Origin: an uncultured Desulfosarcina sp.
Lineage (GTDB): Bacteria > Desulfobacterota > Desulfobacteria > Desulfobacterales > Desulfosarcinaceae
Assembly (NCBI GenBank): GCA_963674945.2
Contig: CAXXWQ010000002.1
Span: 416,001 to 480,000, forward strand
Direction: 5' to 3'
DNA: 64,000 nt
Each line of letters starts with the position of its first letter. The first letter of the stretch is position 1. A model generated the notes under the pieces. The model searched no databases and was not told the DNA's origin. It worked only from the letters and a program-made list of their open reading frames with translations. A program made the position numbers and the translations under genes. Of the stretch, positions 6,325 through 42,800 are shown one piece after another.

Positions 6325-6540
6325 GGGGACAGGTACCAAATGGTTACTGGGGGCTTGGAGCATGGAGGAAGCGGGGAGCAAAAAGTGATGGGTGGTGCGT
6401 GAGTTATAAAACAACGGGGTCAGGTCTACATTCTTGACAAAACATCGTCGCCCTCATTAACACACAGATCCACACAACCCCACACGAACATTAAAAAAAC
6501 TGAAGATGGGAAGGTAAGAAATTTGGAAGCATAGAAAAGG
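6325..6540 (+). repeat. First mosaic spacer (REP-like GGGG[AT]CAGG, GAGC-heptamer, GTGATG, degenerate CACAC and AGAAG modules)
   Basis: ggggacaggtacc 6325; gcttggagcatggag; ggggtcaggtctacattcttgaca 6416-6439; gaagatgggaaggtaagaa. Confidence 0.7.
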
Positions 6541-6584
6541 CCTCTCCGCTTCCTAAGATTTTATAGGCTAAATAGAATAACGCT

Positions 6585-6985
6585 TTACAGCACTCGGGTG
6601 AACTCTGATGCCTCCCTTATGACAGATTCGATATCAGGTTTAGAAGCCGCTACAACTTCATTTATAAGGTGCTTGTGTTCAGGATGACTATTTAAATGTG
6701 GGAAATGTGGTGTGTTGTCATATCTGAAGATCAAATTATTCTGTTCATCTTGAAAATGGTACCTATAACCAAGATGCCGAATGAAATGATCTTCCGCTAT
6801 GGCTGCTTCATTCAGTTCAAGCAAGCAAGCAAGAATCCGTCAATCATGCGAATTCTCAAGCGGATATTGATCCGATCTTCGGTAAGGGCCTCCACATAGT
6901 AGGCTTCAACATATGCATCTTCAAGACTATGAATCACATCATCCAAGTCTGAAATATATTTCTCAAGAGCTGAGTTAAGCAACAT
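6585..6985 (-). pseudogene. DUF6516 (TumE-like) putative toxin, frameshifted at a (CAAG)4 tract
   Basis: ATG 6985 gives MLLNSALEKYI...GFLL, then the frame shifts to ...ELNEAA...YRYHFQD...FRYDNTPH...HPEHKH; removing 8 nt joins the frames. Confidence 0.8.
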
Positions 6986-7205
6986 GGCGAAGCTGCTTTT
7001 CCAATTTTCGATAAATCGCTAAATAATGACGATAATCATTTGCCCATTCAATAAATTCTATTGAATCATCCAGAAGCCCTTTGGAAAATTTGTCATAGAA
7101 GTCCTCGGAAGCCATCTTGTGATTTTTTTCAGACCAACTTAGGCGTTTGGAAAGTGCAACCAAAGCATCAAGGCTTGAATCATATTCAATGCGGTTTTTT
7201 TGCAT
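6975..7205 (-). CDS. Putative antitoxin partner of DUF6516 toxin (TumA-like)
   Basis: Small helical protein with SEDFYDKFSKG.LDD...FIEW motif, overlaps toxin start, RBS GGAGG. Confidence 0.7.
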   Translation of the reverse strand: MQKNRIEYDSSLDALVALSKRLSWSEKNHKMASEDFYDKFSKGLLDDSIEFIEWANDYRHYLAIYRKLEKQLRHVA

Positions 7206-7353
7206 TTGCATGGCCTCCATTTTATTTGAAAACGTCCCGAACATATTAGATCAATATATCAATAACTTACTGTGTTGTCAATTGGAGAATAATAATGGAT
7301 ATGGAACAGCTATGGGGTCAGGCAGGGTAATGAATCCGTTAAATATAATTTTA

Positions 7354-7530
7354 GCCTCTCGCAGAGTTGCAGAGAGCGCAGAGCTAAAGAACAGGTTTGG
7401 GTTGGCTTCGCCAAAAAGAGATATAAACGATTCAGCTACTTTCTTGATTTGATTTCCATCTCAGAAATCAAATGAAACTCCGCGTCTCTGTGTTCTTGAG
7501 CGAAGCGGGCGGGATGAAATAATATGGACC
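7354..7530 (+). repeat. ~176-bp MITE-like element, copy 1
   Basis: CGCAGAG-type left end and CTCCGCGTCTCTGTG...GAGCGAAGCGGGCG right end; near-identical to 7615-7790. Confidence 0.85.
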
Positions 7531-7614
7531 TTAACAGGCTATCCTCCCAAATTATCAAAGCTACTATCAATATACATAGGGAACTGGGTCCCGGATTGTA
7601 AACCAAAAGAATTG

Positions 7615-7790
7615 GCCTCTCGCAGAGTCGCAGAGAGCGCAGAGCTAAAGAACAGGTTTGGGTTGGCTTCGCCAAAAAGAGATATAAACGATTCAGCTAC
7701 TTTCTTGATTTGATTTCCATCTCAGAAATCAAATGAAACTCCGCGTCTCTGTGTTCTCGAGCGAAGCGGGCGAGAGAAATAATATGGGCC
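7615..7790 (+). repeat. ~176-bp MITE-like element, copy 2
   Basis: Direct repeat of 7354-7530 with few substitutions. Confidence 0.85.
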
Positions 7791-7791
7791 T

Positions 7792-8161
7792 AAGCCGTGG
7801 AAACCGTTTCCGGTGAAGAGATCAATGCCTTTCTGAACCGACATCTTGCAAATAGCCAACATGTTCGTACCGATGCACTGCCAGCTATGAACATTATTGA
7901 AGAAGGGTATGAACATGAGAAAAAAGTGACACCCCGGAAGAGGCTTCTAAATGGCTGCCCTTGGTTCACATTGTTATTGGAAATATGAAAACCTTTTTGA
8001 ACGGCACATTTCATGGCGTAACTCACAAATATCTCCAGGAGTACCTGGATGAATTTTGCTACCGTTTTAATCGACGCTTCTGGGAGTCCGAACTCCCATT
8101 TCGTTTGTTGAATGCCTGCATGGCTCATGCACCAGCTACTGGCTGAAAATAGTTAAGAGCC
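7792..8161 (+). pseudogene. IS1595-family (ISXO2-like) transposase 3' fragment, frameshifted, with right end
   Basis: VRTDA..., then in a second frame VHIVIGNMKTFLNGTFHGV..KYLQEYLDEFCYRFNRR; ends in ...AGTTAAGAGCC. Confidence 0.8.
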
Positions 8162-8208
8162 ATTTAAATTAATGTTCCGAAGGGCCGAAATAAGCCCCTT
8201 GTTAAAGG

Positions 8209-8613
8209 TTAATACCAATCTTCGATATTAAGCCCTCTAATACGTTCAAACTCTTTGAGATTATGTGTTACCAGGACACCTTTGTTCGCTAAGGCAGTTC
8301 CAGCAATCAATACATCATATGGACCAATTGGAGTGCCCTGTTTCTCAAGTGTCGCACGAATGTTTGCAGCACATTCTGCTTCATCTGTCCCAAAGGGAAG
8401 GATGCTGGTAATGGATAATAAGGATTGAAGCTGTTTCATACGTTCTTCAGGATAAACTGATTTGGCGATGCCGACCTCCAACTCATAGAGTGCCACTGTT
8501 GGGATTCCGATGCGATTCGGAGGATTTGCCAGCAGAGACTTAGCTACGTTCCCCACTCCTTTGAAAAAGTAAATCAGAGTATTGGTATCCAGGACATACA
8601 TGCTTCCCATCAT
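8209..8613 (-). CDS. vapC: VapC PIN-domain toxin
   Basis: YVLDTN, YELEVG, GTPIGPYDVLIAGTA, LVTHNLKEFERI. Confidence 0.92.
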   Translation of the reverse strand: MMGSMYVLDTNTLIYFFKGVGNVAKSLLANPPNRIGIPTVALYELEVGIAKSVYPEERMKQLQSLLSITSILPFGTDEAECAANIRATLEKQGTPIGPYDVLIAGTALANKGVLVTHNLKEFERIRGLNIEDWY

Positions 8614-8840
8614 ATTTTTTCTCGACTATAATCTTTGCCCATACTATCTCTAATCTCTTCAGCATTTGGCATCTCTTTCCACGCCCCTGCAAGACGTACA
8701 ACATTTTCCGGCCATGTTGTTGCGGTTTTTTCACGAATCAATTCCGCAATCCATTTGCTTTTTGACACACCGTTTTTTTCAATCATATTCAGCATTTTCT
8801 TTTCAGTATGATCGTCGAGGTAGATTGTTACTTGTCCCAT
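8610..8840 (-). CDS. CopG/RHH-type antitoxin
   Basis: MGQVTIYLDD...SKSKWIAELI; directly upstream of vapC. Confidence 0.85.
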   Translation of the reverse strand: MGQVTIYLDDHTEKKMLNMIEKNGVSKSKWIAELIREKTATTWPENVVRLAGAWKEMPNAEEIRDSMGKDYSREKI

Positions 8841-8989
8841 GCTTTCTGCTCCTTTTGAAATGCGATAAAGTATAAGTTAGCATATATGTGGTTAAAGTCA
8901 AGTTCTGTTTCTTAAGGTCAAATCGGGGTCACATTCTTGACAGAACTACCGGGGGGAAGATGTAACACCGCCGCCGAGTGGGCGGTATT

Positions 8990-9157
8990 GATTACTGTTT
9001 ACCGACCGGATCCTGAAAAATGGGTAATTGGACACAAAGGAAGAAAACATCATGAAACCTTTTGAGAAATGCCCTGTCAGATGAAGCATGTAAAAATCCC
9101 CTTGAAGGGGTCATCGGTTCAACCCTGTTGGGTAGCCCGGAATTTGTCACATTCATT
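8990..9157 (+). pseudogene. Degenerate internal fragment resembling a REP-associated tyrosine transposase (RAYT)
   Basis: KNPLEGVIGSTLLGSPEFVTFI resembles the NP...LGS..F segment of long RAYT proteins; REP-like GGGGTCACATTCTTGACA at 8925. Confidence 0.45.
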
Positions 9158-9354
9158 ATCGTATACACGATCCGGTCTTGAAAGCTTAAACGAGCAGAAT
9201 AAAAGCCTTTCAACTGTCCGACCAATTTTTTGCAGGAATAAGGTTCGTGGCATATTTGGTGCTCAAGAATATCTTTGAGTTTGGATTTCAGGCGTGGTGT
9301 GAGTTTATTCACATCTTTTAAAGATTCTTTCGTGAATCTGACTTCATACATCAA
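9155..9354 (-). pseudogene. RelE/YoeB-family toxin, 3'-truncated copy
   Basis: Matches 27312-27566 up to RIVYTI, then runs into unrelated sequence. Confidence 0.85.
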
Positions 9355-9611
9355 GATTCCCCAAAGACGTCATTCATTGAATAGGTGTCGCCATCATTCA
9401 TTTGGTTCACAGATCGGTTCAAACTTTTCAGCATGCCTGGAATTGAAAGAAGTTCAAGGGTTTCAATGAGGCTTTCATATTTTTCTTCAGAGAGCATGAC
9501 AACGGTACCTTTTGGGTGCTGAATTCGAAATATCTGGTGCTTTTCGTTGGCACCTTTCACGATTTCGAAAAAATTACGGCGGGCATCCGTTGCTGATATG
9601 TTGTTTTTCAT
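9351..9611 (-). CDS. Phd/YefM antitoxin (copy 1)
   Basis: SATDARRNFFEIV...VMLSEEKYESLIETLELLSIP; paralog of 27563-27823. Confidence 0.9.
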   Translation of the reverse strand: MKNNISATDARRNFFEIVKGANEKHQIFRIQHPKGTVVMLSEEKYESLIETLELLSIPGMLKSLNRSVNQMNDGDTYSMNDVFGES

Positions 9612-9689
9612 TCTAAACTCCAATAAAAATGTACATTATTACGTACACCATAGGCCTGTGGATGATTTTTGTCAATATTCATATTTTAT

Positions 9690-9810
9690 CTTGACCACCC
9701 TCATTTCCGGTATTTTCGAACCAGAAAGCGGTCGAGCGTTGCTCTTCCTTTACGGCATCATCTTCGAAAACGCTGTCGTAAGCATCCTTTAAACAGGTCG
9801 CTTTTTCATC
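9690..9810 (-). pseudogene. 3' remnant of RHH antitoxin paralogous to 16925-17179
   Basis: Co-linear nucleotide similarity to 16934-17053 (ttgaccaccc...cgctttttcatc). Confidence 0.8.
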
Positions 9811-9849
9811 TGCTGTCCTTTGTCCAACTGCAAGCCATATTTTTGGAGG

Positions 9850-9897
9850 TTGACATTTGTCGATAGAGTAGCTACTTTTGTCACTTAAGGTAGCTAC
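9850..9897 (+). promoter_or_regulatory. TA promoter/operator
   Basis: TTGACA at 9850 and two GTAGCTAC palindromes (9868, 9890). Confidence 0.6.
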
Positions 9898-9910
9898 AAA
9901 AGGGGGCGAA

Positions 9911-10189
9911 ATGATTCAAGCGGGCGTAAAGGAAGTGAAGAATAATTTAAGCCGCTTTTTAAGCCGGGTAAAAACGGGAGACGAAGTTTTGATCACAGAA
10001 AGGGGCAAACCAATAGCACGCATTATCAAAGAAAACTCAAAGCGAATGGATATACGTGAAGAGCTCAGGCCTTTAATTGATAGCGGTTCGGTTGTACTGC
10101 CAAGCAATAGACTGAAAAAGGAAAAGTTACGTAGTTACACGGTCCCTGGAAAGGCCGCTTCTGAAATGGTCATTGAGGATCGCAGATGA
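9911..10189 (+). CDS. Phd/YefM antitoxin
   Basis: GVKEVKNNLSRFL..VKTGDEVLITERGKPIARI. Confidence 0.9.
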   Translation: MIQAGVKEVKNNLSRFLSRVKTGDEVLITERGKPIARIIKENSKRMDIREELRPLIDSGSVVLPSNRLKKEKLRSYTVPGKAASEMVIEDRR

Positions 10190-10614
10190 TCCTGTATTTG
10201 GATACAAGTGCGCTCGTGAAAAGATACTTCCGTGAACCTCATACGGAAGAAATCATCTCACTGTGGCAAAAAGCGGATGAAGTCATTACATCATCGGTTG
10301 CGTATGCGGAAGCGATGGCGACTTTTTATAGAAAAAAGAGAGAAACCGGGATCCATGTTGATGAAATTCAAGCGATCATTAATGATTTTTCGGAGGATTG
10401 GAACTGTTTCATCCGAATTAGAGCAGATGACGAATTAAATCGATATATAAACCAGGTTACTGCCCGGTATCCACTTCGTGGATTTGATGCCATTCATCTT
10501 TCTTCAGCACTGATCGTTTTTCCGAAATTTGAAAAGGAACTGCTTTTTTGTTGCTTCGACAAACAATTGGTCGATGCTGCCGAAAAGGAAGGGCTTTGGA
10601 TTTTCCAAGGGTGA
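10186..10614 (+). CDS. vapC: VapC PIN-domain toxin
   Basis: YLDTSALVKRY, LRGFDAIHLSSA, FDKQL; ATGA overlap with antitoxin. Confidence 0.9.
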   Translation: MILYLDTSALVKRYFREPHTEEIISLWQKADEVITSSVAYAEAMATFYRKKRETGIHVDEIQAIINDFSEDWNCFIRIRADDELNRYINQVTARYPLRGFDAIHLSSALIVFPKFEKELLFCCFDKQLVDAAEKEGLWIFQG

Positions 10615-10664
10615 TTGGTGAGAAACAACAGGCTGTAGGAAGTAAGGACAGAGTGATGAGCAAA

Positions 10665-10949
10665 CTAAGACAAGGAATGGATGCTTTGCAACACATCTGT
10701 TGCTCTAATATTTCCTTTAACACCCTTTTCAGATAGCATGTCGATGGCTTCGGATATGGAAACGCCTAATTCGGTCGACACCTCTCTAATGGAGAGTTTT
10801 CCGTTTTGATATAGGTCTGCGATGTATGTTTCAAAACCGATCCTGGCAAGTTTTCGGAATGACTGGGTGCTGTCAATTTTTTCGATTCTAGACAGGAAGT
10901 TAACAGCATGCTCTATGTCTTGGGGAATCCGGATGGATTTCACTTTCAT
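10665..10949 (-). CDS. UPF0175-family putative antitoxin (copy 1)
   Basis: LYQNGKLSIREVSTELGVS; 3 aa differences from 20927-21211. Confidence 0.75.
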   Translation of the reverse strand: MKVKSIRIPQDIEHAVNFLSRIEKIDSTQSFRKLARIGFETYIADLYQNGKLSIREVSTELGVSISEAIDMLSEKGVKGNIRATDVLQSIHSLS

Positions 10950-11058
10950 GGTACCCTCCCAATCATGGTATAAACCATCGCATATTCGTCATCGCTGATA
11001 AACGGCGCCAACTGCTCGAACATCCAGATCGCCTTTTCCTGTTTGAAATGTTTCAGTG
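10946..11058 (-). pseudogene. PIN toxin remnant (5' ~360 bp deleted)
   Basis: Matches 21208-21318, then jumps directly to the upstream sequence seen at ~21680. Confidence 0.85.
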
Positions 11059-11186
11059 TTTTGTAATTATTGTATTACGCGTCGTCAACGAAAAACAAGG
11101 CAAAGGGCTCGCACAAATAGGTCGGTCTGCATTCTTGATAGGCCCCCATTATAAACTACTGCCTCACGAAAATGTCAGAGAAATGA

Positions 11187-11505
11187 TTAGCCACGGACAC
11201 ACACGGACGGGAAAACAGGTGGTAGACTATCGGCTACAGGGGGAGAGGTGAAAGCGTTGAGCCTGGCGCGTGGAACAAACAGTTATGGGTGATGAGTGAG
11301 GAACGCAGGTGGATAGGCTATAGACTGTAGGCTGTAGGAAAAGGGTTTAGATCGGATATGGGAAGGGAAATAGGATTTGGGTCATGGGCAAATAGCTTAG
11401 AGAAGGGAGCGGGGAGCAAACAGTATGGGTGATAGGAAAATTAGCTGATATCTCATAGGGGATAGCTGATAGGGTAAAAAGAAATAAGCAAGAAGCGGAG
11501 AGCGG
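11187..11505 (+). repeat. Mosaic heptamer spacer
   Basis: ttagccacggacacacacggac; ggctatagactgtaggctgtagg; gtgatgagtgagg; tagctgatatctcataggggatagctgatagg; gagcggggagc. Confidence 0.85.
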
Positions 11506-11520
11506 GTTGTCAATAAATGA

Positions 11521-11560
11521 TTGACAAAAGGCTATTGTATATCCATATATGTATATACAA
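11521..11560 (+). promoter_or_regulatory. vapBC promoter/operator
   Basis: TTGACA 11521; inverted repeat TTGTATAT...ATATACAA. Confidence 0.6.
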
Positions 11561-11582
11561 TAGCTTTTATTTGGAGAGCGAA

Positions 11583-11813
11583 ATGGATACGGCAAAAATC
11601 TTTAAAAGTGGAAACTCTCAAGCGGTTCGGTTGCCCAAAGCATATCAATTCGATGTGACAGAGGTGCAAATATTTCGAAGGGGTGATGAAATTGTTTTGA
11701 AACGTAAACCCCAGAACCTATCCAAAGCATTCGAGCTTTTAACCAGCATGTCGGATGATTTCATGGACGATGGACGTTGTCAGCAACCGTTACAGAATAG
11801 GGAGCCACTATGA
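11583..11813 (+). CDS. vapB: VapB antitoxin (AbrB/SpoVT fold)
   Basis: MDTAKIFKSGNSQAVRLPK. Confidence 0.93.
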   Translation: MDTAKIFKSGNSQAVRLPKAYQFDVTEVQIFRRGDEIVLKRKPQNLSKAFELLTSMSDDFMDDGRCQQPLQNREPL

Positions 11814-12217
11814 CGGTGATGCTGGACACTGATATTTGCATCTATACGATAAAGAAAAAACCTCGAAATGTCCTCAAACATTTTGAGAGATGCCAGCCAG
11901 GATCGGTTGTTATGTCGGTTATCACTTTTGCCGAATTGATCAATGGAGCGAAAAAGAGCCAATACGTGGAAGATAATGTTCGTCGTTTGAATGCCCTGAG
12001 TGAACTTATCGAGGTGCTTCCTTTCGAAAAAAGCGCAGCTATTGCATATGGTGATGTTCGCTCAGACCTTGAGAAAAGAGGCTTGATTATCGGTAGCAAT
12101 GATATGTTTATCGCTGCCCATGCATTGAGCTTGGACCTGACATTGGTTACCAACAACCAAAAGGAGTTTGGCCGGGTCAAAGGATTAAAAATCGAGAATT
12201 GGGTTAATGGTGAGTGA
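11810..12217 (+). CDS. vapC: VapC PIN-domain toxin
   Basis: MLDTDICIY, IIGSNDMFIAAHA, LVTNNQKEFGRV. Confidence 0.93.
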   Translation: MTVMLDTDICIYTIKKKPRNVLKHFERCQPGSVVMSVITFAELINGAKKSQYVEDNVRRLNALSELIEVLPFEKSAAIAYGDVRSDLEKRGLIIGSNDMFIAAHALSLDLTLVTNNQKEFGRVKGLKIENWVNGE

Positions 12218-12400
12218 TGAGGGGGGGAACGCAGGTGGATAGGCTATAGACTGTAGGGTTATATGCAAAGAGCATACGGCGTGGGGCTTGGAGCTTGGAG
12301 GAGAGAAACAGAAGTCAGGAATTTGGGAAAAGCAGAAATTAGGAAGAGCCAAGGCCCTTTTTTGCACCGCAGAGTCGCAGAGTCGCAGAGATCCCAGAGG
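12210..12400 (+). repeat. Mosaic spacer; 12266-12353 duplicated at 13470-13559
   Basis: gcaaagagcatacggcgtggggcttggagcttggaggagagaaacagaagtcagg...agagccaag identical in both places. Confidence 0.85.
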
Positions 12401-12421
12401 GTTATCATTTTTTGAGATAAA

Positions 12422-12742
12422 TCATGCTGCGAAAAGAATTTCACCATCACGAGCGAAATCAGTTACAAATGAATCTCCTTGCTCCCATTCCTCTTGGGTC
12501 ATTGCTATTGCTTCAATCGGTTCAAATATTTCATAAATTGCTTCTGACATAATATCAATTCGTTCCCAGTAATCTTTGCCAATGAAATTTTCAGATATGA
12601 CGATAAGGTCAATATCACTTCCTTCTTGATGGATACCGGAAACATATGATCCATAGAGTATGATTTTTGACGGGCTGATACCTTTTGCCTTAATTGCTTG
12701 ATGAAATTCATCGACTATTTTTATAACTGCTTTTTTATCCAT
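12422..12742 (-). CDS. Minimal nucleotidyltransferase (MNT)
   Basis: LYGS...SDIDL (GSX10DXD) motif. Confidence 0.9.
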   Translation of the reverse strand: MDKKAVIKIVDEFHQAIKAKGISPSKIILYGSYVSGIHQEGSDIDLIVISENFIGKDYWERIDIMSEAIYEIFEPIEAIAMTQEEWEQGDSFVTDFARDGEILFAA

Positions 12743-13101
12743 GCAACGACCTCCCTTCCCTGGGTCAGGATATCATCGACCACTGCTTTGCTATAAACTT
12801 TCTGAAGTTTAACGAGATTTTCCGGATATCGGGTAGGAATGCTGGCTTCGTTTAATTTTACGATAAACTTGCCATGGTCGGGTGACGGTTTGATACCCAT
12901 TTGGTTTAATAGATATATCAGATTGTGGGATTTAGGTGGTATTGAATGATGTTTTTCGTAATAAAGACCTTTCAACGCCTTCTCAATGGCAAGATGGCAC
13001 ATGAAAACAGCATAGATGTACCGTCCGCCATCATACATGTAGACTGCTGTGTCCATATCATAGTCAGATTGGTTCATCCATTCTATTGTCCGTTTTTCCA
13101 T
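12721..13101 (-). CDS. HEPN domain protein
   Basis: FMCHLAIEKALK, PKSHNL, TRYP; paired with MNT. Confidence 0.9.
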   Translation of the reverse strand: MEKRTIEWMNQSDYDMDTAVYMYDGGRYIYAVFMCHLAIEKALKGLYYEKHHSIPPKSHNLIYLLNQMGIKPSPDHGKFIVKLNEASIPTRYPENLVKLQKVYSKAVVDDILTQGREVVAWIKKQL

Positions 13102-13149
13102 AATAAATGATTAACAGACAAATTATTGTAAATTCAAGCAGTAATTTAT

Positions 13150-13710
13150 TGGTGAGGTAAGCAGGTGGATAGGCAATAGAAAAATAGTGGTCAGTGATGC
13201 GTAATGGATGATGCGCGAATTAGCTGATAGCTCATAGGAGATAGCTGATAGTGGTTATAGGCTTTAGGCTAAGCAAGATGACTTTCATCCATTTAGCCAC
13301 GGACACACACATATTACAGGCTATAGATTTTAGGCTGTAGGAAAATAGCGGTTAATGATCAGTCATGGGTGATGGGAAAAGGGCAAATAGCTTGGAGCGA
13401 AGAGCGGAGAACAGAAGTTAGGAAGAGCGGAGGACCGGAAGGGAAAGAGGTGATAGACTGTAGGCCGTAGGCAAAGAGCATACGGCGTGGGGCTTGGAGC
13501 TTGGAGGAGAGAAACAGAAGTCAGGAATTTGGGAAAAGCAGAAATTAGGAAGAGCCAAGACCCTTTGGTTTTGCACCGCCCTGCCTGTCCCGCCTATCGG
13601 GGCTTCGCTCGAGTCGCTGAGATCGCAGAGGGTTGTTTGTCCCCTTCGGGGAGAGTGGGGATGGGCGATAGGCCATAGACTTTAGGCTGTAGGCTGTAGA
13701 CTATAGGCGA
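13150..13710 (+). repeat. Longest mosaic spacer (nearly all repeat modules)
   Basis: gtgatgcgtaatgg, tagctgatagctcatagg, ttagccacggacacacac, ggctatag/ggctgtag runs, gagcggaga, cgcagag. Confidence 0.85.
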
Positions 13711-13729
13711 AACAGAAAACTTTATGTGC

Positions 13730-14080
13730 TTAAGCGAAACTACTTTCTTCAATACCAAAGATCGATGCAAATTTTTTTCGTGTTGCTTTTCGGTAAACAG
13801 CGTTTTGGCGTTCCCATTTGGCAATGGTTGATTGCTTTACGTTCATCCTGCGGGCGAGTTCCGCCTGCGTCCAACCCCTTTCAATACGTTCCCTTTTTAC
13901 AGGGTTCATGAAAATGTAATCTTCGGCCTCCTTGCGGTCATATAGCGATTCCGTCGCCACCGAACGGATTGCATCACAATCAGTGTCGTCTTCAATTTTT
14001 TCCAACAAACGGTTGAATTCGTCTACCGGTAATACGATGAATTTAATTTTCCCTTTTTCTTTAATGGTTTGATATTCCAT
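13730..14080 (-). CDS. XRE/HTH antitoxin (HigA-like)
   Basis: RIERGWTQAELARRMNVKQSTIAKWE; downstream of relE-like gene. Confidence 0.85.
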   Translation of the reverse strand: MEYQTIKEKGKIKFIVLPVDEFNRLLEKIEDDTDCDAIRSVATESLYDRKEAEDYIFMNPVKRERIERGWTQAELARRMNVKQSTIAKWERQNAVYRKATRKKFASIFGIEESSFA

Positions 14081-14083
14081 GAT

Positions 14084-14344
14084 TTATCCTTTGTAAATGT
14101 CTCCACGTGATCGTACCTTAACGATTTCAATTGTTAAAACATCATCATTGCGCGTGTATATGATGCGATATTTCCCCACCCTGAGTCTCCAACCGATCCT
14201 GCCTTTTGGCACAGCAGTATCGAGGTCCGGACTATCAGGGTTTTCAGCCAGGGCATGAATTTTCTCGACAATAGCGGTTTTCGATTTTAATGGGAGGCGC
14301 GCAATATAGTTTCTTGCGCTTCGCCTATATTTTAGTTCATACAT
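14084..14344 (-). CDS. RelE/ParE-family toxin
   Basis: WRLRVGKYRIIY...VRSRGDIYK. Confidence 0.9.
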   Translation of the reverse strand: MYELKYRRSARNYIARLPLKSKTAIVEKIHALAENPDSPDLDTAVPKGRIGWRLRVGKYRIIYTRNDDVLTIEIVKVRSRGDIYKG

Positions 14345-14409
14345 ATAGAGCTATATAGCTTAAAGGGGTATATTTGTCAAAGCGTATTTTTCTTTGAAAC
14401 GGCTTTCGG

Positions 14410-14605
14410 AGAAAGCAGGTGTTTAGGCTGTGGGCGATGGGTAATAGGCAATAGGTGATAGTCTATGGGCTATAGGGGATAGCTGATAGGCTGTAGGCTA
14501 TAGGGGGAGATAACAAAAGGGCCTCTCGCAGAGTCGCAGAGCTAAAAGAGGTTGTAGGATAAAGACAACCAATTTTAAATTATGAATCGGTAATTTTGAA
14601 TTAGA
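14410..14605 (+). repeat. Mosaic spacer
   Basis: GGC(T/A)ATAG/GGCTGTAG heptamers, gatagctgatagg, ctctcgcagagtcgcagag, ttttaaattatgaat/ttttgaatt. Confidence 0.8.
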
Positions 14606-14777
14606 TAAGCCTCCGGCAATGGGGCTTAAATAATTTCGCAAAAGGAATTTGTAAAATGAAAGGGTTCTCGATATGGTATTGCTTTTATTTTTATGTATTG
14701 TATAAATGTTATAGGCATTGAAAAAGATATTTAATAATACATATATTTAAATGTAATGATCGTAGTTGGGGGGCAAC

Positions 14778-15023
14778 ATGGTTTCAACGGTAACTATCAA
14801 AGGCCAGGTAACAATTCCTAAAGAAATCAGATTGTTTCTTAATATTAAACCTAGTGACAAGGTTGATTTTTCTGTTGAAAACGGACTAGTCGTCCTGAGA
14901 CCAATCAAAACATTGAAAAATTTCAGAGGGAGTGTCCCAGCCAAAGGGACAGGAGACTTTGATTTGGAAAGATCAAAAGCCAAGCATGAAGTTGCTAATC
15001 GTATCGTTGAGGCTATGGAATGA
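14778..15023 (+). CDS. AbrB/MazE/SpoVT antitoxin
   Basis: TVTIKGQVTIPKEIR. Confidence 0.9.
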   Translation: MVSTVTIKGQVTIPKEIRLFLNIKPSDKVDFSVENGLVVLRPIKTLKNFRGSVPAKGTGDFDLERSKAKHEVANRIVEAME

Positions 15024-16585: not shown

Positions 16586-16586
16586 T

Positions 16587-20743: not shown

Positions 20744-20754
20744 GGTGTTTGTGG

Positions 20755-34240: not shown

Positions 34241-35536
34241 ATGCGCATTCAAGATACCGCTGACCGACGTGCTTTCTGCAGCTTTTCCCTGTGCTTGTGG
34301 CTTCTGTTTTGCCTCGGGACGGATGCCATCGCCGATTTTCATTTCACCCCACGCCTATCGGCCGGTGTCGCCTATACGGACAACGTTTTTTTGACTCCGG
34401 ATCGCGAAGAGCACGACATCATCACCTTCGTTTCTCCCGGTATCGCTCTGGAGTGGACGGGTCGAAACAGTGCTCTGGGCATTGACTATGCCCCGATTTA
34501 CAACAGCTACCTGCGGTTTCCGGAATATACCTATTGGGGCCACAGTGCGACGTTGGACGGGTGGACCGAAGTTGCCCGTGGCACCCGGCTGGAATTGACC
34601 AACACCGCTACCTATACCCAGGATCCGCCGGATACCGAGACCGATACCACGGTCCGGCAAGGCAGAGAACCGTATTTCACCAACACGGCCACCATCGGCG
34701 TGGTCAATCAGTTCGGTGCCGAAAACAGCATCGCATTGCATTACACCCACTACATTCTCGAAAACGAAGACATTACCATCGAAGACAGTTCCTATCATCG
34801 GCCGGAAATCCTGATCACCCACTGGTTTTCCCCCAACCGCTATGCCTTGGAAATGGAGGCGCTGTATACCGTCAGCAACTTCGATGTGTCTGCGGATTTC
34901 GATGATCTGGACGCCCGGATTCGATTTACCAAGCGTTTCAACAGCCACCTGGACGGGTATCTCGAATATGGTCATGTCTACCTCGACTATTACGACGACA
35001 CCGAGGAGGATTATCAGGTATACAGTCCACTGGCGGGTTTCATCTGGGATGAGCGGTCCAACACGCACTTTGGCGCCAGCTTCGGTTATTTTTATCGGGA
35101 CAACGAGTTCAGCGAAGACGACGACGGCATCGTCGGAACCATTGAGATGAGCTATGCCTATTCCAGAGAGAGCACTTTCTCGATGCTCGGAGACGTGGGG
35201 TATGACCGTGCCAATTTCGGTGCGGAAAACCTGGGATTCAATCCCTACTATTCGGTTTCGGGCTCCGTTGATCACCGGATCAACCGCCTGCTCGCGGGCA
35301 TTGTGACCGCCGGGTATCGACGGAACCTCTACATCGACGAAACCCCCGACAGGGAGGATGCCGTATGGTATGCCGGCGCCGGTCTGGCCTACCAGCCGCT
35401 GGCATGGCTGACGTTCAATCTGGATTATGAATACAGGCAGATCAACTCCAACGTCGACATCAACGATTATACGGAGAACCGGGTAACCTTTTCGTTTCGG
35501 TTGGCGCCGGGGCAGCCGGTGCGGTTTGGGAGATAG
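34241..35536 (+). CDS. Outer-membrane beta-barrel protein (EPS/PEP-CTERM-associated)
   Basis: TPRLS....YTDNVFL, SPG, alternating aromatic strands, SN....DYTENRV C-terminus; start uncertain (34219 GTG possible). Confidence 0.8.
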   Translation: MRIQDTADRRAFCSFSLCLWLLFCLGTDAIADFHFTPRLSAGVAYTDNVFLTPDREEHDIITFVSPGIALEWTGRNSALGIDYAPIYNSYLRFPEYTYWGHSATLDGWTEVARGTRLELTNTATYTQDPPDTETDTTVRQGREPYFTNTATIGVVNQFGAENSIALHYTHYILENEDITIEDSSYHRPEILITHWFSPNRYALEMEALYTVSNFDVSADFDDLDARIRFTKRFNSHLDGYLEYGHVYLDYYDDTEEDYQVYSPLAGFIWDERSNTHFGASFGYFYRDNEFSEDDDGIVGTIEMSYAYSRESTFSMLGDVGYDRANFGAENLGFNPYYSVSGSVDHRINRLLAGIVTAGYRRNLYIDETPDREDAVWYAGAGLAYQPLAWLTFNLDYEYRQINSNVDINDYTENRVTFSFRLAPGQPVRFGR

Positions 35537-35586
35537 GCTGTAGCCCAAAGACTGCAGGCTGTAGGCCGATGGTATGGGAGATACCT

Positions 35587-35796
35587 TTGCGGGACCACAC
35601 GAAGTTAAGAGCATTTGAATTGGCGGATGAATTAGCGATACTTACTTATCGTGTGACACGTAATTTCCCAAAATCCGAGATTTATGGACTTTCTTCCCAG
35701 ATGAGAAGGGCCGCCGTTTCGGTGCCGTCAACGATTGTGGAGGGGTGTGCTAGAGAACGCCAGGCAGAATATCTGCAAAACTATGAGGCATTATAG
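35587..35796 (+). pseudogene. Four-helix-bundle protein (TIGR02436 / 23S-IVP family), 3'-truncated
   Basis: RDHTKLRAFELAD...FPKSEIYGLSSQMRRAAVSVPS.IVEGCAR; only ~69 aa versus roughly 115-120 usual; RBS GGGAG before TTG. Confidence 0.88.
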
Positions 35797-35870
35797 ACTA
35801 TAACCTGTCGCCTACAGTCTAATCTGCTAAACTTATTGGAGGCTCCATGAACATATATACAGGCCATGGC

Positions 35871-38804
35871 ATGATAAGGTTTCTGCTCGTCTTGGTTTTG
35901 GTGACGCTGATGGGACCGGCGAGGGGCCTGGCGCTGGATGTCAACGGCATTGTCGACACTGACAGCCGCTGGACAACGGACGACAGTCCCATAAAGATCA
36001 CGGGCGATCTTCTGGTGGCCCAGGGGGCGACCCTGACCATCGATCCGGGTGTTCAGGTGGTGTTCATGACGCGTGCCGATACGGCCCGGGGATACAATCT
36101 CAGGGTCGAGGGGACACTGTTTGCCCGGGGCACCGCAGCAAATACCATCTCCTTTACCGCCCAGGACCCGTTGCTTCCCTGGGGCGCAATTCTCTTCGAG
36201 GATATCAGCGCGGATTGGGATGCCGACCAGGGGACCGGGAGCAGAATCTCCCATTGCGTCATCGAATACGGGGGCAATACCGCAGATTTCGGTATGATCG
36301 TTACCCGAAATGCCATGCCCCTGATACGTGACAACGCCATCCGTTTCAGCGCCGGCGCAGGCATTGCCGCCTTTGCCGACGACGGCGTGGTGACGGTCGG
36401 AGAGAATCTTCAGATCATCGACAATTGGATTTACGGCAACCCCATCGGTCTCGTCATGTTCGCGGAGGAAGGGGTGGTGACCGGTAACTACTTTCTGAGC
36501 AACGGATCGGCCATGGACGTCACGGCCCGCTCCAACGCTGTCGTCATACAAAACAACACCATTTCAGGCGCTTCAACCAACCTTCTCGGGTCGGGGATTC
36601 GTCTCGAACTTGCCGAACCGGCCAGCGGTCTTGCCGGCTACAATTGGGTGCAGACCGGAGGGCCCACTGTTTCTCTGGACTCGACCGACGGCAATCAAGC
36701 CTCGTTTGTCGCGCCGGATCCGGGAAGCGACGTTTATGTCCTGACCTTCGAGCTGACGGCAACGGGTGTCGATGGTTTGCGTGCCGCCGATACGGTGGCG
36801 GTGACCGTAACCGGAACGAATCTGCCGCCGGTGGCAAACGCCGGGTCCGATGCCAACGTTCTTCGCACCGCCGGAATGATGGTAACCCTGAGCGGGGTCG
36901 GTTCAACGGATCCCGACAATGGGATCGCCTCCCTTTTCTGGGAGCAAGAGTCCGGAACAACGGTCTCTTTGCAGGATACGGATACGATCGCACCCTATTT
37001 TTACATCCCTTACACGGTCGTTGCCGGAGAAGAGATGACCTTCCGGCTTACGGTGACCGACCAGGGCGGACTCGAATCGACGGACACGGTTACGCTTCGT
37101 TTTTACAGCGACAACATCTACCCTCGTGCCGGTGTCGGGGAGGAGATGGCCGCCGCAACGGCACAGACCGTCGAGCTGGATGGCACCGGATCCGTGGATC
37201 CGGACGGCGTGATCGCAACCTATCTTTGGGAGCAGACGGACGGGACGACGGTCACCCTGGAAAATGCCGACACGGCCACCGCCAGTTTCGAAGTGCCGGC
37301 GGTTGCGGACGGTGGTGAGGTCTTGACCTTTGCGCTGACCGTTACCGACGATGGCGGATTGACGGACACCGAGACGCTGACGGTCCGGATCAACCCCGTT
37401 GCGGTGGATGCCGGGGAAGACCGGACCGTTTCGGCCGGCGACGAGGTGATTCTCGACGGCAGCGGTTCCATCGATCCCAATGCCTCTGCCGACATCCAGA
37501 TCCAGCACAATACCATCGTGTCCGACGGTGACGGTGCCGGTTTGATGGCCGTTACCGGGGTCGAGGAGGCCCGGTATCAATTGTCATTTTCCGAAAACAA
37601 CCTCGAATTCGACGATGCACAAGGCTATGCGTTTTATCTGTACGATTGGGATGAATCGACCACAGAAATCAACATAACCCACAACTGGTGGGGAAGCGTT
37701 TCCATTCCTGCCATCGACACCTTGATTTACGATCAGGCCGATGATTTCCAATTGCCTTCGGTGGTGTACCGGCCTGTCGCCGCACAGTTGATCGCGGCAG
37801 CCGGATCAGACCTGGTTTATCCACCCCTGGCCAATGCGGGGCCGGATATGGAAACCACCATGGATGCGGCCGTGACCCTTGATGGCAGCCAATCCTACGA
37901 TCCCGACGGGATCGGCACGTATCGATGGGAACAGACAGAAGGGGAATCCGTGACAATTCGTACATCCAATCAGGCCGTCGCGACTTTCGTCGCGCCCTCC
38001 GGCGGCACCGACGGTCGGGAGCTTCGCTTCTCCCTCACCGTATCCACGGGCGGACCGTTCACCCATACCGATGAGGTCGTGGTTACCGTCGTGCCCGATG
38101 AAACCGTGCCTCTGGTCGAGGTGGGCGAAGGCTGCTTCATCGGTTCGACGATTGCCCCATCCGTCGAAGCGGGAAAGGGGTGCGTGATGATGATTGTCGC
38201 AACCTTGGCAATGGTTTCGTGTCTGGTTTTGGGGTCCCGAAAGAGAAGGCAAGGTTTTGCCGCACTGTTTGCGGTTTTGCTGGTTGTTTTCATTCCATCG
38301 TCACACGCCGGCTTTTTTGCCGTTGGCGGTGGCGGCGGTGGTGAAGCGGAGAGGTATAACATCACCATCGAAACCGGGGCCAAGGACATTACCGCCGGCT
38401 CCTTGGAGATGATGTTCGCATTCGGGATCCCGTTCATTCCCCACGGTGACAAGAATATTCCCGAAAATACCGTTGCGATGCCGTGCCCCAACGACCAGTG
38501 CATGTCGCTGGGAGAAGAGAGAAAAGGGACCGAAGTGGGGTTTTATGGAAAATTGGGGATCGAGATCGGATCCACCAACCTCTATTGTAACCTCCTTGGT
38601 GGTTTTACCGCATACACGGAAAGTGAACTGGTGCGATCAACGGGTTCCGGCACAACATTCGAAGAATCGTCCGATACGGTTTTAGAACCCCTCTATGGCG
38701 CCGGGTTGAGCTATTTTCCGGATTACTGGAAATGGCCCATCCTCCTGCAGGTGGACTGGGACATCACCCGGGGAGTTACGGGCACCATTGGTTGGTGTTG
38801 GTGA
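35871..38804 (+). CDS. Large surface protein: beta-helix, PKD/K319L-like repeats, internal GCFI+TM segment, C-terminal beta-barrel-like domain
   Basis: Signal peptide; LTIDPGV; repeated PVANAG.D/LDG..S.DPD/Y.WEQT.G; ends GVTGTIGWCW. Confidence 0.8.
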   Translation: MIRFLLVLVLVTLMGPARGLALDVNGIVDTDSRWTTDDSPIKITGDLLVAQGATLTIDPGVQVVFMTRADTARGYNLRVEGTLFARGTAANTISFTAQDPLLPWGAILFEDISADWDADQGTGSRISHCVIEYGGNTADFGMIVTRNAMPLIRDNAIRFSAGAGIAAFADDGVVTVGENLQIIDNWIYGNPIGLVMFAEEGVVTGNYFLSNGSAMDVTARSNAVVIQNNTISGASTNLLGSGIRLELAEPASGLAGYNWVQTGGPTVSLDSTDGNQASFVAPDPGSDVYVLTFELTATGVDGLRAADTVAVTVTGTNLPPVANAGSDANVLRTAGMMVTLSGVGSTDPDNGIASLFWEQESGTTVSLQDTDTIAPYFYIPYTVVAGEEMTFRLTVTDQGGLESTDTVTLRFYSDNIYPRAGVGEEMAAATAQTVELDGTGSVDPDGVIATYLWEQTDGTTVTLENADTATASFEVPAVADGGEVLTFALTVTDDGGLTDTETLTVRINPVAVDAGEDRTVSAGDEVILDGSGSIDPNASADIQIQHNTIVSDGDGAGLMAVTGVEEARYQLSFSENNLEFDDAQGYAFYLYDWDESTTEINITHNWWGSVSIPAIDTLIYDQADDFQLPSVVYRPVAAQLIAAAGSDLVYPPLANAGPDMETTMDAAVTLDGSQSYDPDGIGTYRWEQTEGESVTIRTSNQAVATFVAPSGGTDGRELRFSLTVSTGGPFTHTDEVVVTVVPDETVPLVEVGEGCFIGSTIAPSVEAGKGCVMMIVATLAMVSCLVLGSRKRRQGFAALFAVLLVVFIPSSHAGFFAVGGGGGGEAERYNITIETGAKDITAGSLEMMFAFGIPFIPHGDKNIPENTVAMPCPNDQCMSLGEERKGTEVGFYGKLGIEIGSTNLYCNLLGGFTAYTESELVRSTGSGTTFEESSDTVLEPLYGAGLSYFPDYWKWPILLQVDWDITRGVTGTIGWCW

Positions 38805-38809
38805 TTGAT

Positions 38810-39215
38810 CGTGATGAGCAAAGAGCGGAGAGCAACGAGTGATGAGGAAATAAGCTGATAGCTCATGGGTGATAGCTCATAGGACATGGATGATGATCGA
38901 AGGAAAAAATTGAATTATTGTTTTGCCACGGACACACACGGACGGGGTTTGATCTTAGATCAAAGGTAAAGAGCAATGCGTAATGAGTGATGGGGAAAGG
39001 AGCCTAAAGATCATTTCCAAAATAATTCACTGCCCGCTTCGCTCGAGCCGCAGAGTTTCATTATTACCCCGAAGATAAATGAAAAAACATTTGCGTTTCT
39101 GCGGTGCAAACAAAAATAACTTCGACTCTTTACAAGCCAGTAATCAGTTATGCGTTATGTGTTATGAAAAACAACATGGTAATAGGCCATAGACTACAGC
39201 CTACAGCCTGTAGTT
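38810..39215 (+). repeat. Mosaic spacer
   Basis: 38851-38995 matches 23020-23121, 16424-16496 and 32160-32228; inverted GGCTGTA module at 39190-39213. Confidence 0.8.
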
Positions 39216-39224
39216 TATCCCATC

Positions 39225-39270
39225 ACGAGAAAGGCGGATGATGGTCTACACCATCATCCGCCTTTCTCGT
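39225..39270. terminator. Hairpin between convergent genes
   Basis: Perfect 21-bp stem ACGAGAAAGGCGGATGATGGT, loop CTAC. Confidence 0.75.
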
Positions 39271-40185: not shown

Positions 40186-40670
40186 TGTGGCATAAAGTGG
40201 TCGATATTTTTTTATAATTATTTTATTTCAACGGGTTGCGGCCAACAGAATGTTTGAATTGGGAAAGGAAAGAGCAAAAAATAGATCGAAAAATGAGAAA
40301 ATAAATATATAAAAATATGGTTGTATGTGTAAAAATATTCCCAATGAGATTCAATTTTAATCTGGCATGTTGCTTGACTGTAACAAAACCATTCGTCATG
40401 CAATATGAATTGGGAAAACAAGAAGATGCCGGCCGAAATGAGTGATGGGGTATGAGCAGGGGAATTGAACGGTCGTTCTTGACTCATTGTCTCTGTTCTA
40501 TGCCCCCCCCCCTCCGCCTGTGTCCAGAACTAAAGATATTTCGTTGAAAACCGATAAAGTACGGAGAAGGGAAACGAGATTGCCCTTTTTATCTTTGCGA
40601 TCTTGGCGACTCGAGTGAAGTCCGGTCAATGTGACGGGATAAACAGTGCGGTCAAATTAGAAAAGGAACG

Positions 40671-41663
40671 ATGATGAGATTTTTTACGATTCGTATGTGG
40701 CTTTTTCTCCCAATTTTGTGCGCTGTCTCCTGGTTGTCAACGGAGGCCATCTTTGCCGAATCGGTGATCGTTGACCACAATCATACAGATATTACCGCGA
40801 TACCACAGTCGGCCATCGCACAGGCGAAACAGACACTTCACATCGCCTATGGCCACACCTCCCACGGAAGTCAGTTGACAACGGGCATGACCGGGTTGGT
40901 GAGCTTTGCCAATGGCGGTGGATTGGGTCTTTCCCTTCCGGACAACTTCTTTGCATGGGACAACGGCGGGACGGACGGTGCTTTAGACCTTCACGATTAC
41001 GCCATGGGTGGGGATGTGGGTTACTACCCCCAATGGGTAGACAACACGCGGGCCTATCTGGATGATCCGGAAAACGCGGATGTCAACGTGATCATCTGGT
41101 CATGGTGCGGACAGGTGGACGACAAGTACGCCGCCGGCACCCTGGATACCGAGTATCTGACACCCATGGCCCAGTTGGAAGCCGACTATCCCGATGTTAC
41201 CTTCGTATACATGACCGGGCATGTGGATATCGACGACGACGCAGACAACAAGGCCGCCAATCAGGTGATTCGGGACTTTTGCGAGAACAATGGCAAGGTG
41301 CTTTTCGATTTTGCCGATATCGAACACTACGATTCCGACGGCCAATATTTCGAATATGTCGATGACGATTGCAGTTATTACGATGGTCCCCGCGGTACCT
41401 ACCTGGGAAATTGGGCCGTTGCGTGGCAAGATGCCCACGTGGAAGGGCAGGACTGGTACGATTGCAGTTCCGCCCACAGTGAGCCGCTCAACGCGAACAG
41501 AAAAGCCTATGCCGCATGGTGGTTGTGGGCGAGGCTTGGCGGCTGGGATCCGGCGCCGGTTGTCGATGGCAACGATGATGACGATTCCCCTCCGGTTGCT
41601 TTTCAGGCTGACGATGGTGGCAGTGGCGGTTGTTTCATTCGTGCCGCCATCTTTGACAGGTAA
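40671..41663 (+). CDS. Secreted protein (paralog of 29169-30065) with GGSGGCFI tail
   Basis: Signal peptide; IAYGHTSHGSQ, WSWCGQ, YMTGH, DFADIE, AHS. Confidence 0.75.
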   Translation: MMRFFTIRMWLFLPILCAVSWLSTEAIFAESVIVDHNHTDITAIPQSAIAQAKQTLHIAYGHTSHGSQLTTGMTGLVSFANGGGLGLSLPDNFFAWDNGGTDGALDLHDYAMGGDVGYYPQWVDNTRAYLDDPENADVNVIIWSWCGQVDDKYAAGTLDTEYLTPMAQLEADYPDVTFVYMTGHVDIDDDADNKAANQVIRDFCENNGKVLFDFADIEHYDSDGQYFEYVDDDCSYYDGPRGTYLGNWAVAWQDAHVEGQDWYDCSSAHSEPLNANRKAYAAWWLWARLGGWDPAPVVDGNDDDDSPPVAFQADDGGSGGCFIRAAIFDR

Positions 41664-41670
41664 AAATAAA

Positions 41671-41862
41671 TTAGCCATCCCAGTTAAAATTCGCTTCGCT
41701 CTTCACTATCGTGCATTTTATGGGATAGACGGACACACACGGAAAAAAGAGGTGATGGGCCGTAGACGGTAGGCTGTAGGAAAGCATAGAGCGGAGAGCA
41801 ACCAGTGATGGGTGATGCGTAATGGGTGATGAGTGGAAAGAGCTGAAAGCAGGGAGTGGGAA
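41671..41862 (+). repeat. Mosaic spacer containing the palindromic mini-element (41679-41730)
   Basis: ttagcca..ggacacacacgg, ggctgtagg, gagcggagagc, gtgatgggtgatgcgtaatggg. Confidence 0.8.
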
Positions 41863-41986
41863 GCGAATTATTGGATCGATGCACGTACTGCGATTCATGA
41901 TGATTGGAATTCGAATTTCGGCCATTGTCGGTTGACTTTATGTTGTGTACGTTTTAAAGTGTACACATTAGAAAGGGGCTATTATC

Positions 41987-42220
41987 ATGAAAATCAATGC
42001 CGCCGAATTCAGAATGAAATGTTTCAAAATATTGGATCAGGTGAATTCTACCCATCGGGAGGTGATTATCACGAAACGGGGTAAACCCATTGTAAAGATA
42101 GTACATGTAGAGCAGGATGATAAAAGGGACCCGATGTTGGGAGCGCTGTCAGGCACCGGAAGGACCCTTGAAGACCTTACGCTACCGATAGTCGAATCGG
42201 ATGCATGGGAATTGGATTGA
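41987..42220 (+). CDS. Phd/YefM antitoxin
   Basis: INAAEFRMKCFKILDQV...IITKRGKP. Confidence 0.9.
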   Translation: MKINAAEFRMKCFKILDQVNSTHREVIITKRGKPIVKIVHVEQDDKRDPMLGALSGTGRTLEDLTLPIVESDAWELD

Positions 42221-42612
42221 TGATCTTGCTGGACACACATGTCTGGTGGTGGAGTCTTGCCGAACCGGAGAATCTTTCAGCGGATACAATGGCGGTGATT
42301 CGCACCACAAAAACAGACGAACGTTTCATCTCATCGATTTCGATTTGGGAATTTGCCATGATGTTGGCAAAAAACAGGATTGAGTTGAAAATTTCTCCAA
42401 CCAAATGGTTGTCGAAAGCCATCGATGCATCCGGAATTACAGTGATCGAATTGTCTCCGGAAATCGCTGTCGATTCATGTAATCTGCCTGGTGATTTTCA
42501 TAAAGATCCTGTTGATCGAATTATCGTCGCTACCGCCAGAATTCATAACCTCACATTGTTAACCAAGGATAAAAAGATATTGGACTATCCGCATGTAAAA
42601 TCTTTTTGGTGA
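42220..42612 (+). CDS. vapC: VapC/PIN toxin
   Basis: LLDTHVWWW, SIWE, HKDPVDRIIVATA, LLTKD. Confidence 0.92.
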   Translation: MILLDTHVWWWSLAEPENLSADTMAVIRTTKTDERFISSISIWEFAMMLAKNRIELKISPTKWLSKAIDASGITVIELSPEIAVDSCNLPGDFHKDPVDRIIVATARIHNLTLLTKDKKILDYPHVKSFW

Positions 42613-42650
42613 TTTGATGAAGATTCTAAGGGCATAATCAATTAGAAGGA

Positions 42651-42800
42651 TTAGCCACAGACCCACACAGACGAACACGGACAGAAAAATAGGTGGTAGA
42701 CTATAGGCTGTAGGTTATAGGCTACGGGTATTGAGTTATGAGTGGAAAAAGCTCAGAGTTTGGAGCAGGGAGCGAGGAGCGAAGGTGGTGAGTGGAGACT
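42651..42800 (+). repeat. Last mosaic spacer
   Basis: ttagccacagacccacacagac, agactataggctgtaggttatagg, ggagcagggagcgaggagcg. Confidence 0.8.

Follow-up and report, generated by a model that had tools for sequence, protein, structure and literature searches.

A 22-kb region in the genome of an uncultured Desulfosarcina sp. carries a strand-polar array of toxin-antitoxin (TA) modules. The explanation that we favour, with modest confidence, is that in its spacers one half of the inverted arms of four-helix-bundle and GxxExxY genes is stacked, and that the TA modules likely entered such an arm serially, by recombination between short repeat words of the same sense. The arms are likely landing sites for a little-known gene-collecting route. 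The array (6308..28027, Pfam) holds 20 TA pairs or remnants, a Fic gene, an orphan gene of 307 amino acids (aa) and insertion sequence (IS) elements, with one-sided word stacks between them. It lies in a window of 64,000 nt (G000:C2:416001-480000, where G000 is the source genome and C2 the contig) that opens with the end of a polysaccharide cluster; genes of a PEP-CTERM system come after the array. Positions given without a contig are those of the window, G0xx are relatives of the same genus and L0xx are loci. Parts of the assembly are matched letter for letter by contigs from four public sequencing runs.

Repeat words of the spacers

The initial annotation had described eight words, A to H, in the spacers. 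Strict patterns were counted on both strands of 6350-42800, with 20 dinucleotide shuffles as control, and seven of the eight stand far above the shuffles, with plus/minus counts of 12/1 for A, 13/1 for B, 9/10 for C, 6/0 for D and 7/0 for each of E, F and G (shuffle expectation 0-0.05 for each). Word H is at chance level in the same interval (2 matches vs. 2.35 expected) and was dropped as a genuine module of the window. All ten minus-strand matches of C fall in a single run of 31 heptamer copies at 30182-30396. The nine positions that had been given for word A and the six for word C all carry the word, and the repeated block 12266-12353 does have an identical partner, located at 13472-13559 and not at 13470-13559. 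Reuse of the modules in more than 20 intergenic regions was confirmed too, as 23 word-bearing spacers could be parsed. Of the periods of seven and nine that had been proposed, only the first was recovered: in 18 array spacers the autocorrelation peaks at lags 7, 14 and 21 (0.396, 0.344 and 0.319; shuffled ca. 0.27), and there is no peak at lag 9.

When the 23 spacers were encoded as module strings and compared with 5000 within-spacer shuffles, the order of the modules was non-random (bigram mutual information, p = 0.001). However, blocks of 40-155 bp are common to 16 spacer pairs, so that much of what had been called a grammar consists of copied blocks. The claim that the spacers are not decayed copies of a single MITE (miniature inverted-repeat transposable element) is borne out: the best partner of a spacer covers a median of 36% of it (23 spacers), end-to-end alignment fails and inverted arms are nearly absent in the array. 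The spacers are a mosaic, and a single MITE family was rejected. Genome-wide, the words are almost restricted to C2 (58 matches of word A vs. 2 elsewhere). A whole spacer used as DNA query gave only word matches of 23-38 bp, in 9 of 30 relatives, and the spacers are therefore lineage-specific.

Strand polarity of the array

On two points the initial annotation was silent, namely the strand polarity of the words and the identity of the intervening genes as TA modules. We found 90 plus-strand and 4 minus-strand word matches in 6300-28100, regardless of the strand of the TA genes, which span ca. 6.6-27.8 kb; of the array blocks (TA and Fic), 17 lie on the minus strand and 4 on the plus strand. 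In contrast, word A is balanced (49/51, plus/minus) in C2 359-388 kb. Since the first long inverted arm appears only at 30182-30430, the array reads as a single very long left arm starting at the stop codon of the glycosyltransferase gene. In the upstream polysaccharide cluster (C2 350-388 kb) the words form inverted pairs between genes. Nine spacers of that cluster fold with z values of -2.1 to -9.4 (30 mononucleotide shuffles per spacer) and 16 array spacers with values of -2.9 to +1.4. The idea that the spacers are stacked half-sites is largely borne out at the sequence level: of each inverted pair, the array contains hardly more than one member, and the words are tied to protein subfamilies.

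Similar arrays are found in other species. Using a leave-one-out word library, from which the genome being scored was omitted, 21 regions were compared by their plus/minus matches. The window (32/4) is accompanied on the one-sided end by L097 of G015 (20/4), L093 of G007 (16/2), L095 (6/1) and L090 (4/0), and the opposite bias is seen in L096 (3/24), L087 (7/19), L088 (7/21) and L092 (6/18). L098, L099, L100, L102, L103 and L104 are near balance, and L085 (15/23), L086, L089, L091, L094 and L101 have intermediate polarity. Both L097 and L093 are TA arrays (Pfam-confirmed), one-sided like the window, and L097 has four modules in common with it, in a different order.

Genes between the arms

The initial annotation had assigned each word to a different cognate factor. 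The source genome has 10 matches to the four-helix-bundle family (PF05635), nine of them on C2, and a single GxxExxY gene (PF13366, PD-(D/E)XK by family match). Inverted tandem-word arms enclose PF05635 genes at C2:369146-369505 (word C) and at 35569-35796 of the window (word B); word G surrounds a gene split into C2:360382 and 362214, and word A the GxxExxY gene. The genus set of 31 genomes gave 96 four-helix-bundle genes (from 118 matches, after filters for length, uniqueness and flanks) and 27 GxxExxY genes (from 46 matches). At 74 of the 96 four-helix-bundle genes the upstream arm is closer to the reverse complement of the downstream arm than to its direct copy. Coupling of word and protein was measured in bins of pairwise identity. 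The 6-mer cosine of the flanks is 0.36 for 53 cross-genome pairs of four-helix-bundle genes with at least 80% protein identity, 0.19 for 112 pairs at 60-80% and, within one genome, 0.04 for 153 pairs below 40%. Throughout the genus the sequence of the arms tracks the protein subfamily and not the host genome, and flank similarity of the GxxExxY genes likewise tracks protein identity.

Counting patterns on both arms yields five genes each for B and F and two each for C and A, with B and C flanking two four-helix-bundle subfamilies on both sides and A and F two GxxExxY subfamilies; E, G and H flank other subfamilies, matched by eye. Word A occurs in 14 of the 31 genomes and is most frequent where a close GxxExxY gene exists (45 copies in the source genome, 17 in G038 with a 70% identical protein, 8 in G009 with a broken gene at 76%), the exception being G042, with 8 copies and 40% identity. 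The assignment of words to cognate factors is largely borne out at the sequence level (A to C and F by pattern count), save that word order owes more to copied blocks than to a code and that H is not enriched in the window. The genes that had been sought between words in inverted orientation are four-helix-bundle genes for B and C, and for D in one case. Two four-helix-bundle relatives, 2GSC and 2RLD, contain five chains each, and the proteins have a weak likeness to the diversity-generating retroelement (DGR) protein Avd.

The sense of the words on both flanks separates the classes of genes. Four-helix-bundle genes have words inverted inward at 48 of 59 callable loci (96 examined). Large genes follow the ordinary pattern at 11 of 12 callable loci, with same-sense flanks at 1/12 (100 examined). 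PIN loci had both flanks callable in 17 of 56 cases, comprising 12 same-sense, 4 with the ordinary gene pattern and 1 inverted inward (Fisher p 0.002 and 1e-5 for the comparisons, over loci that are non-independent). By these counts, the place of four-helix-bundle genes is the loop and that of ordinary genes the gap between hairpins, and most TA modules lie inside an arm. The TA pair at C2:349862-350559, for example, has minus-strand arms on either side. Twelve of the 27 PIN genes of the genome are in a 110-kb word-rich region (C2 349-459 kb).

Insulation at the RNA level could also produce polarity. Most TA transcripts would then enter a C-rich, G-poor, unfolded strand that loads Rho or a four-helix-bundle RNA binder and stops read-through, and selection on expression, not the route of insertion, would account for the bias. 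C-rich, G-poor, unfolded RNA is a feature of Rho rut sites. With 30% G and 15% C on the plus strand of the spacers, the 17 minus-strand blocks read into C-rich sequence; in the arrays of G015 and G007, too, most words on the TA coding strand are C-rich, and most array spacers are unfolded. We nevertheless regard insulation as improbable. G-rich words stand on both sides of the four plus-strand modules of the array, of the module at 41987 and of the C2:349862 pair, the same-sense cases are 8 G/G vs. 4 C/C, and the coupling between word and protein would be left unexplained.

A probable moving unit

The VapBC pair at 11583-12217 has orthologues in five relatives, at other sites and among different words, with toxins 76-84% identical. 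In all five, one end of the DNA homology is the -35 box, 62-70 bp ahead of the first start codon, and the other lies no more than 12 bp from the stop. The pair has a 46-bp direct repeat in its two flanking spacers, and the HEPN-MNT pair likewise lies between direct repeats. Duplication inside the array has affected four modules or remnants, one of them with a boundary in word A. The beta-barrel gene has orthologues in 15 of 30 relatives. Target-site duplication is not supported as a general insertion mark, since most insertions are without it (direct repeats of at least 46 bp in 2 of 17 neighbour pairs).

Some of these data would also suit a passive hot spot, in which the words are fast-evolving simple repeats riding with genes, TA modules accumulate because polysaccharide loci are transfer hot spots, RecA-type block copying makes the mosaic and a founder effect amplified by tandem duplication makes the polarity. 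Intergenic heptamer repeats are already published (PMC4692102, PMC4679880), the long blocks common to 16 spacer pairs and the four duplicated modules agree with such copying, an adjacency signal is absent, and several IS elements lie in the same region. We hold this explanation to be possible but doubtful. The different words, at least seven in number, all face one way, and each is linked to a protein subfamily; other species, too, have one-sided arrays, in which both the words and the order of the modules differ. Furthermore, the published stop/start rule predicts both forms in every spacer, and it fits 11 of the 12 large genes and only 4 of the 17 PIN modules.

Polar arrays of small modules also recall an integron-type cassette cluster (CALIN), with the integron integrase of the genome acting in trans. 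An intact IntI above the cut-off is present at G000:C3:2206329-2207270, and sedentary integrons are described as polar and enriched in TA cassettes (PMC13108822). Here, none of the 22 tyrosine recombinase matches is on C2, the spacers are mostly unfolded and contain no repeated short hairpin (as judged without an attC covariance model), and no repeat family or TA homologue is common to the array and the 110 kb around intI, where self-comparison revealed no attC-like repeat family. A CALIN is accordingly very improbable; an IntI linked to the array is absent, and we have no evidence of an integron here.

Several observations weigh against serial entry of TA modules into an arm. Six other cross-genome TA comparisons are looser than that of VapBC, and in three of them homology extends 27-41 bp beyond the -35 box; selection alone could leave homology that ends at promoter and stop. 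Similarity between spacers does not rise with adjacency (median score 25 for neighbours vs. 26 for distant spacers, p 0.46 and 0.13), and a direct repeat of at least 46 bp occurs in only 2 of 17 neighbour pairs. No clean excision joint was found in the public contigs (four runs), the joints there stemming from repeats or having short sides. Five junctions between TA blocks are without any word, the TA cluster L085 of G009 is two-sided (15/23), and at most one flank was callable at 39 of the 56 PIN loci. As to the arms, the word library was derived from these arms, so that the 48/59 value is partly built in, and some close protein pairs are orthologous loci that share flanks by descent, which inflates flank similarity. 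GxxExxY genes fail the mirror test (9/27, k-mer measure), because they lie between whole hairpins, and a clear D-armed four-helix-bundle gene was found at only 1 of the 43 loci picked for D.

A proposed route for the growth of the array

Under the explanation that we favour, the array would grow by the capture of minimal promoter-to-stop TA modules through short-homology recombination. The donor, a piece made up of a word, a promoter, antitoxin and toxin genes and another word, would pair with a resident arm via same-sense words; this pairing would set the strand of the words, leave that of the TA genes free and lengthen one arm. Subsequent block copying and deletion would reshuffle the modules, and addiction would retain the TA pairs. 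To judge from the protein families, the GxxExxY nuclease is a putative catalyst that may nick at the words, and the five-chain four-helix-bundle proteins may bind them as single-stranded DNA or RNA.

A broader proposal, which we advance only tentatively, is integrase-free gene capture. GxxExxY nucleases and four-helix-bundle pentamers would each read their own word of 7-10 bases and drive strand-specific recombination, mobilising their own genes, gene-less hairpins and promoter-to-stop modules between same-sense words and building polar TA arrays at polysaccharide loci. If true, this would be a functional parallel to superintegrons. The locus displays a measurable consequence, TA modules gathered into strand-polar arrays without an integrase, and if the proteins drive the growth of the array it would be a new route of gene capture. 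If they are not the drivers, the locus still shows repeat arms seeding TA/defence islands beside surface-polysaccharide genes. In bacteria, heptamer repeats are widespread, and so are TIGR02436 four-helix-bundle proteins and GxxExxY proteins. The locus offers a matched table of words and protein subfamilies within one genus, a basis for a cross-matrix test of binding specificity.

Organization of the array

The modules are small antitoxin-toxin pairs of type II, of the PIN, RelE/ParE, MazF, HEPN-MNT and TumE types (Pfam, NCBIfam), with 16 toxin-family Pfam matches in the array, one of them below the cut-off; remnants named RelE-like, PIN-like or CopG-like were assigned by eye. The first stack (6308..6584, plus strand; D, E, A-like and G) is right behind the last glycosyltransferase gene and is followed by a TumA-TumE pair (6585..7244, minus; PF20126, NF045776) and by a complete gene-less F hairpin in two 181-bp copies (7351..7791, 97%), one of the two two-armed elements within the array. 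Four blocks without words between them come next (8209..10614): a PIN pair, Phd with a truncated YoeB-like gene, an antitoxin remnant (all minus) and a Phd-PIN pair (plus). The minus-strand segment 10663..11194 is a deleted copy of the module at 20925-21819 (97% and 87%), its homology beginning at the last stop codon and ceasing where word A starts. The plus-strand stack A-E-B-D-C (11170..11520) leads into the VapB-VapC unit, which extends from the -35 box to the toxin stop (11520..12217, plus; Pfam). Behind it, stack E-B-D-G-F (12205..12421, plus) is 93% identical over ca. 128 bp to 13453-13579, and the HEPN-MNT pair (12422..13101, minus; Pfam) is flanked by two near-identical spacer blocks. 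The longest stack, with 15 modules, is at 13140..13729 (plus).

The segment 13730..17179 contains ParE/RelE-HTH (minus), AbrB-PIN (plus), AbrB-PIN (minus) and antitoxin-MazF (minus) (Pfam), with plus-strand stacks at 14395-14600, 15431-15635 and 16330-16586. An IS66 copy (17373-19866), flanked in the sequence by an 8-bp target duplication, splits a short inverted E arm, the only one, in the D/E stack at 17235..19986; at least nine further near-identical full IS66 copies are present in the genome. The first part of 19987..27823 comprises AbrB-PIN (minus), a PIN-like pair (minus), an orphan open reading frame (ORF; plus), antitoxin-MazF (minus) and AbrB-PIN (minus), and the last part Fic (minus), Phd-PIN_3 (plus) and Phd-YoeB (minus), by Pfam and, for the PIN-like label, by eye. 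Plus-strand stacks lie at 20740-20926, 21800-21960, 23000-23167, 23755-23949, 24685-24929 and 26255-26330. The 307-aa ORF (22080-23003) has no Pfam or NCBIfam family match. At 27900..29170 lie stack A-B-C, an IS1595 copy (28028-29075) and word A.

A small hairpin of ca. 50 bp is located inside word A at 21816..21866 (plus), with a second copy at ca. 41675-41727. These are the only two copies in this genome, and a third is found in G015 (L097, ca. 10325-10375); the insertion point in word A is the same in three places and two species, as for a tiny element targeting word A itself. It recalls the small dispersed repeats of cyanobacteria.

Other features of the window

The first long inverted arm past the array is at 30015..30430 (A, A, C-like, core, 31 inverted C heptamers and inverted A; fold z -5.9), and its core is 96% identical to G000:C2:349714-349873. 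Long perfect heptamer runs in inverted C-rich arms were observed here (30182-30396) and at G000:C2:349788-349873, 369509-369591, 616230-616303 and after 631968, which suggests that expansion by slippage takes place mainly on the inverted C-rich side. A C arm, a core and a short inverted arm are found 3' of a VanZ-like gene (33351..33520). The truncated four-helix-bundle gene (35534..35821 with its arms, plus; PF05635, TIGR02436), with B upstream and inverted B downstream, is a unit of cognate gene plus arms within the window itself. Stack E-D-E-C-A-E-F, followed by short inverted arms, separates convergent genes (38780..39230). A second small one-sided array (41664..42800, plus; Pfam) has a Phd-PIN pair (41987-42612, plus) between two stacks. 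Folding is weak (z -0.4 to -1.2) for three elements of the window that look complete.

Outside the window, a second word-rich region (G000:C2:615000-672000) has four four-helix-bundle genes or fragments of one subfamily, with other words, and L055 (G037:C1:4260598-4263906) contains several near-identical four-helix-bundle units at distances of ca. 1 kb, where the gene-plus-arm unit may have been amplified in tandem. Among the remaining genes of the window, 29046-30065 and 40671-41663 code for two related secreted-looking proteins without Pfam or NCBIfam match, the latter with a 75% identical homologue at G000:C4:1734831. A 2644-aa RHS protein with carboxypeptidase-regulatory-like domains (43434-51368, Pfam) is followed by a pair of small membrane-like ORFs (42986-43415), possible immunity genes. 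A 746-aa ORF (1611-3851) has no Pfam or NCBIfam family match.

Comparison with known systems

Intergenic heptamer repeats have been described in Xanthomonas and Nostoc (Rehm et al., 2015, PMC4692102) and in Beggiatoaceae, Cyanobacteria and Bacteroidetes (MacGregor, 2015, PMC4679880), under a rule by which the G-rich strand follows stops and the C-rich strand precedes starts. The repeats described here are similarly intergenic tandem units of 7 nt, the Beggiatoaceae unit has a likeness in word C, and 11 of the 12 large genes have the G-rich form after the stop. Unlike in that rule, only 4 of 17 PIN modules conform, and the array is biased 90 vs. 4. The systems described in those papers have one or two words genome-wide, and here there are many words at few loci, tied to subfamilies and one-sided in TA arrays. 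The account of Rehm et al. (2015) gives no general connection of the repeats to mobile elements, and the main text of MacGregor (2015) makes no mention of toxin, 23S, intervening or GxxExxY. Our literature search, with subscription papers mostly outside it and supplements not covered, found no paper on word-protein coupling or one-sided TA arrays, nor one joining these genes, words and arrays.

The intervening sequence (IVS) of the Coxiella 23S rRNA (PMC4990558), described as a selfish element cut from the transcript, shares the PF05635 protein and the inverted ends. The units of the present genome differ in lying between protein genes and in having tandem-word arms and gene-less and one-armed derivatives. 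Membership was rejected, as an Rfam search of 6000-43500 gave no matches and the location is thus not in rRNA. REP/REPIN-RAYT systems (repetitive extragenic palindromes and their doublets; PMC3116915) also have gene-less hairpin doublets that are commonest where the cognate gene is present, like word A here. Their difference is that our cognate genes are not HUH transposases and the words are tandem and non-palindromic; this membership was rejected too, the two Y1 genes of the genome being on C3 and C4 only and the array words one-sided.

Sedentary integrons and CALINs (PMC13108822, PMC4889954) are, as described, likewise polar arrays of small TA-rich modules with their own promoters, but here no attC-like hairpins were detected, no integrase is linked and the spacers are variable mosaics. 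The arrays of Neisseria intergenic mosaic elements (NIMEs) and minimal mobile elements (PMC1797815) are also intergenic mosaics by surface-structure genes, and NIMEs have been proposed as recombination substrates growing by repeated exchange. A NIME, however, is described as one 20-bp inverted repeat around variable spacers and said to be Neisseria-specific, unlike the polar tandem words of 7-10 nt with TA cargo reported here. Heptamer-repeat and mosaic-spacer systems are thus already known, and the one-sided TA array on such arms is a new variant.

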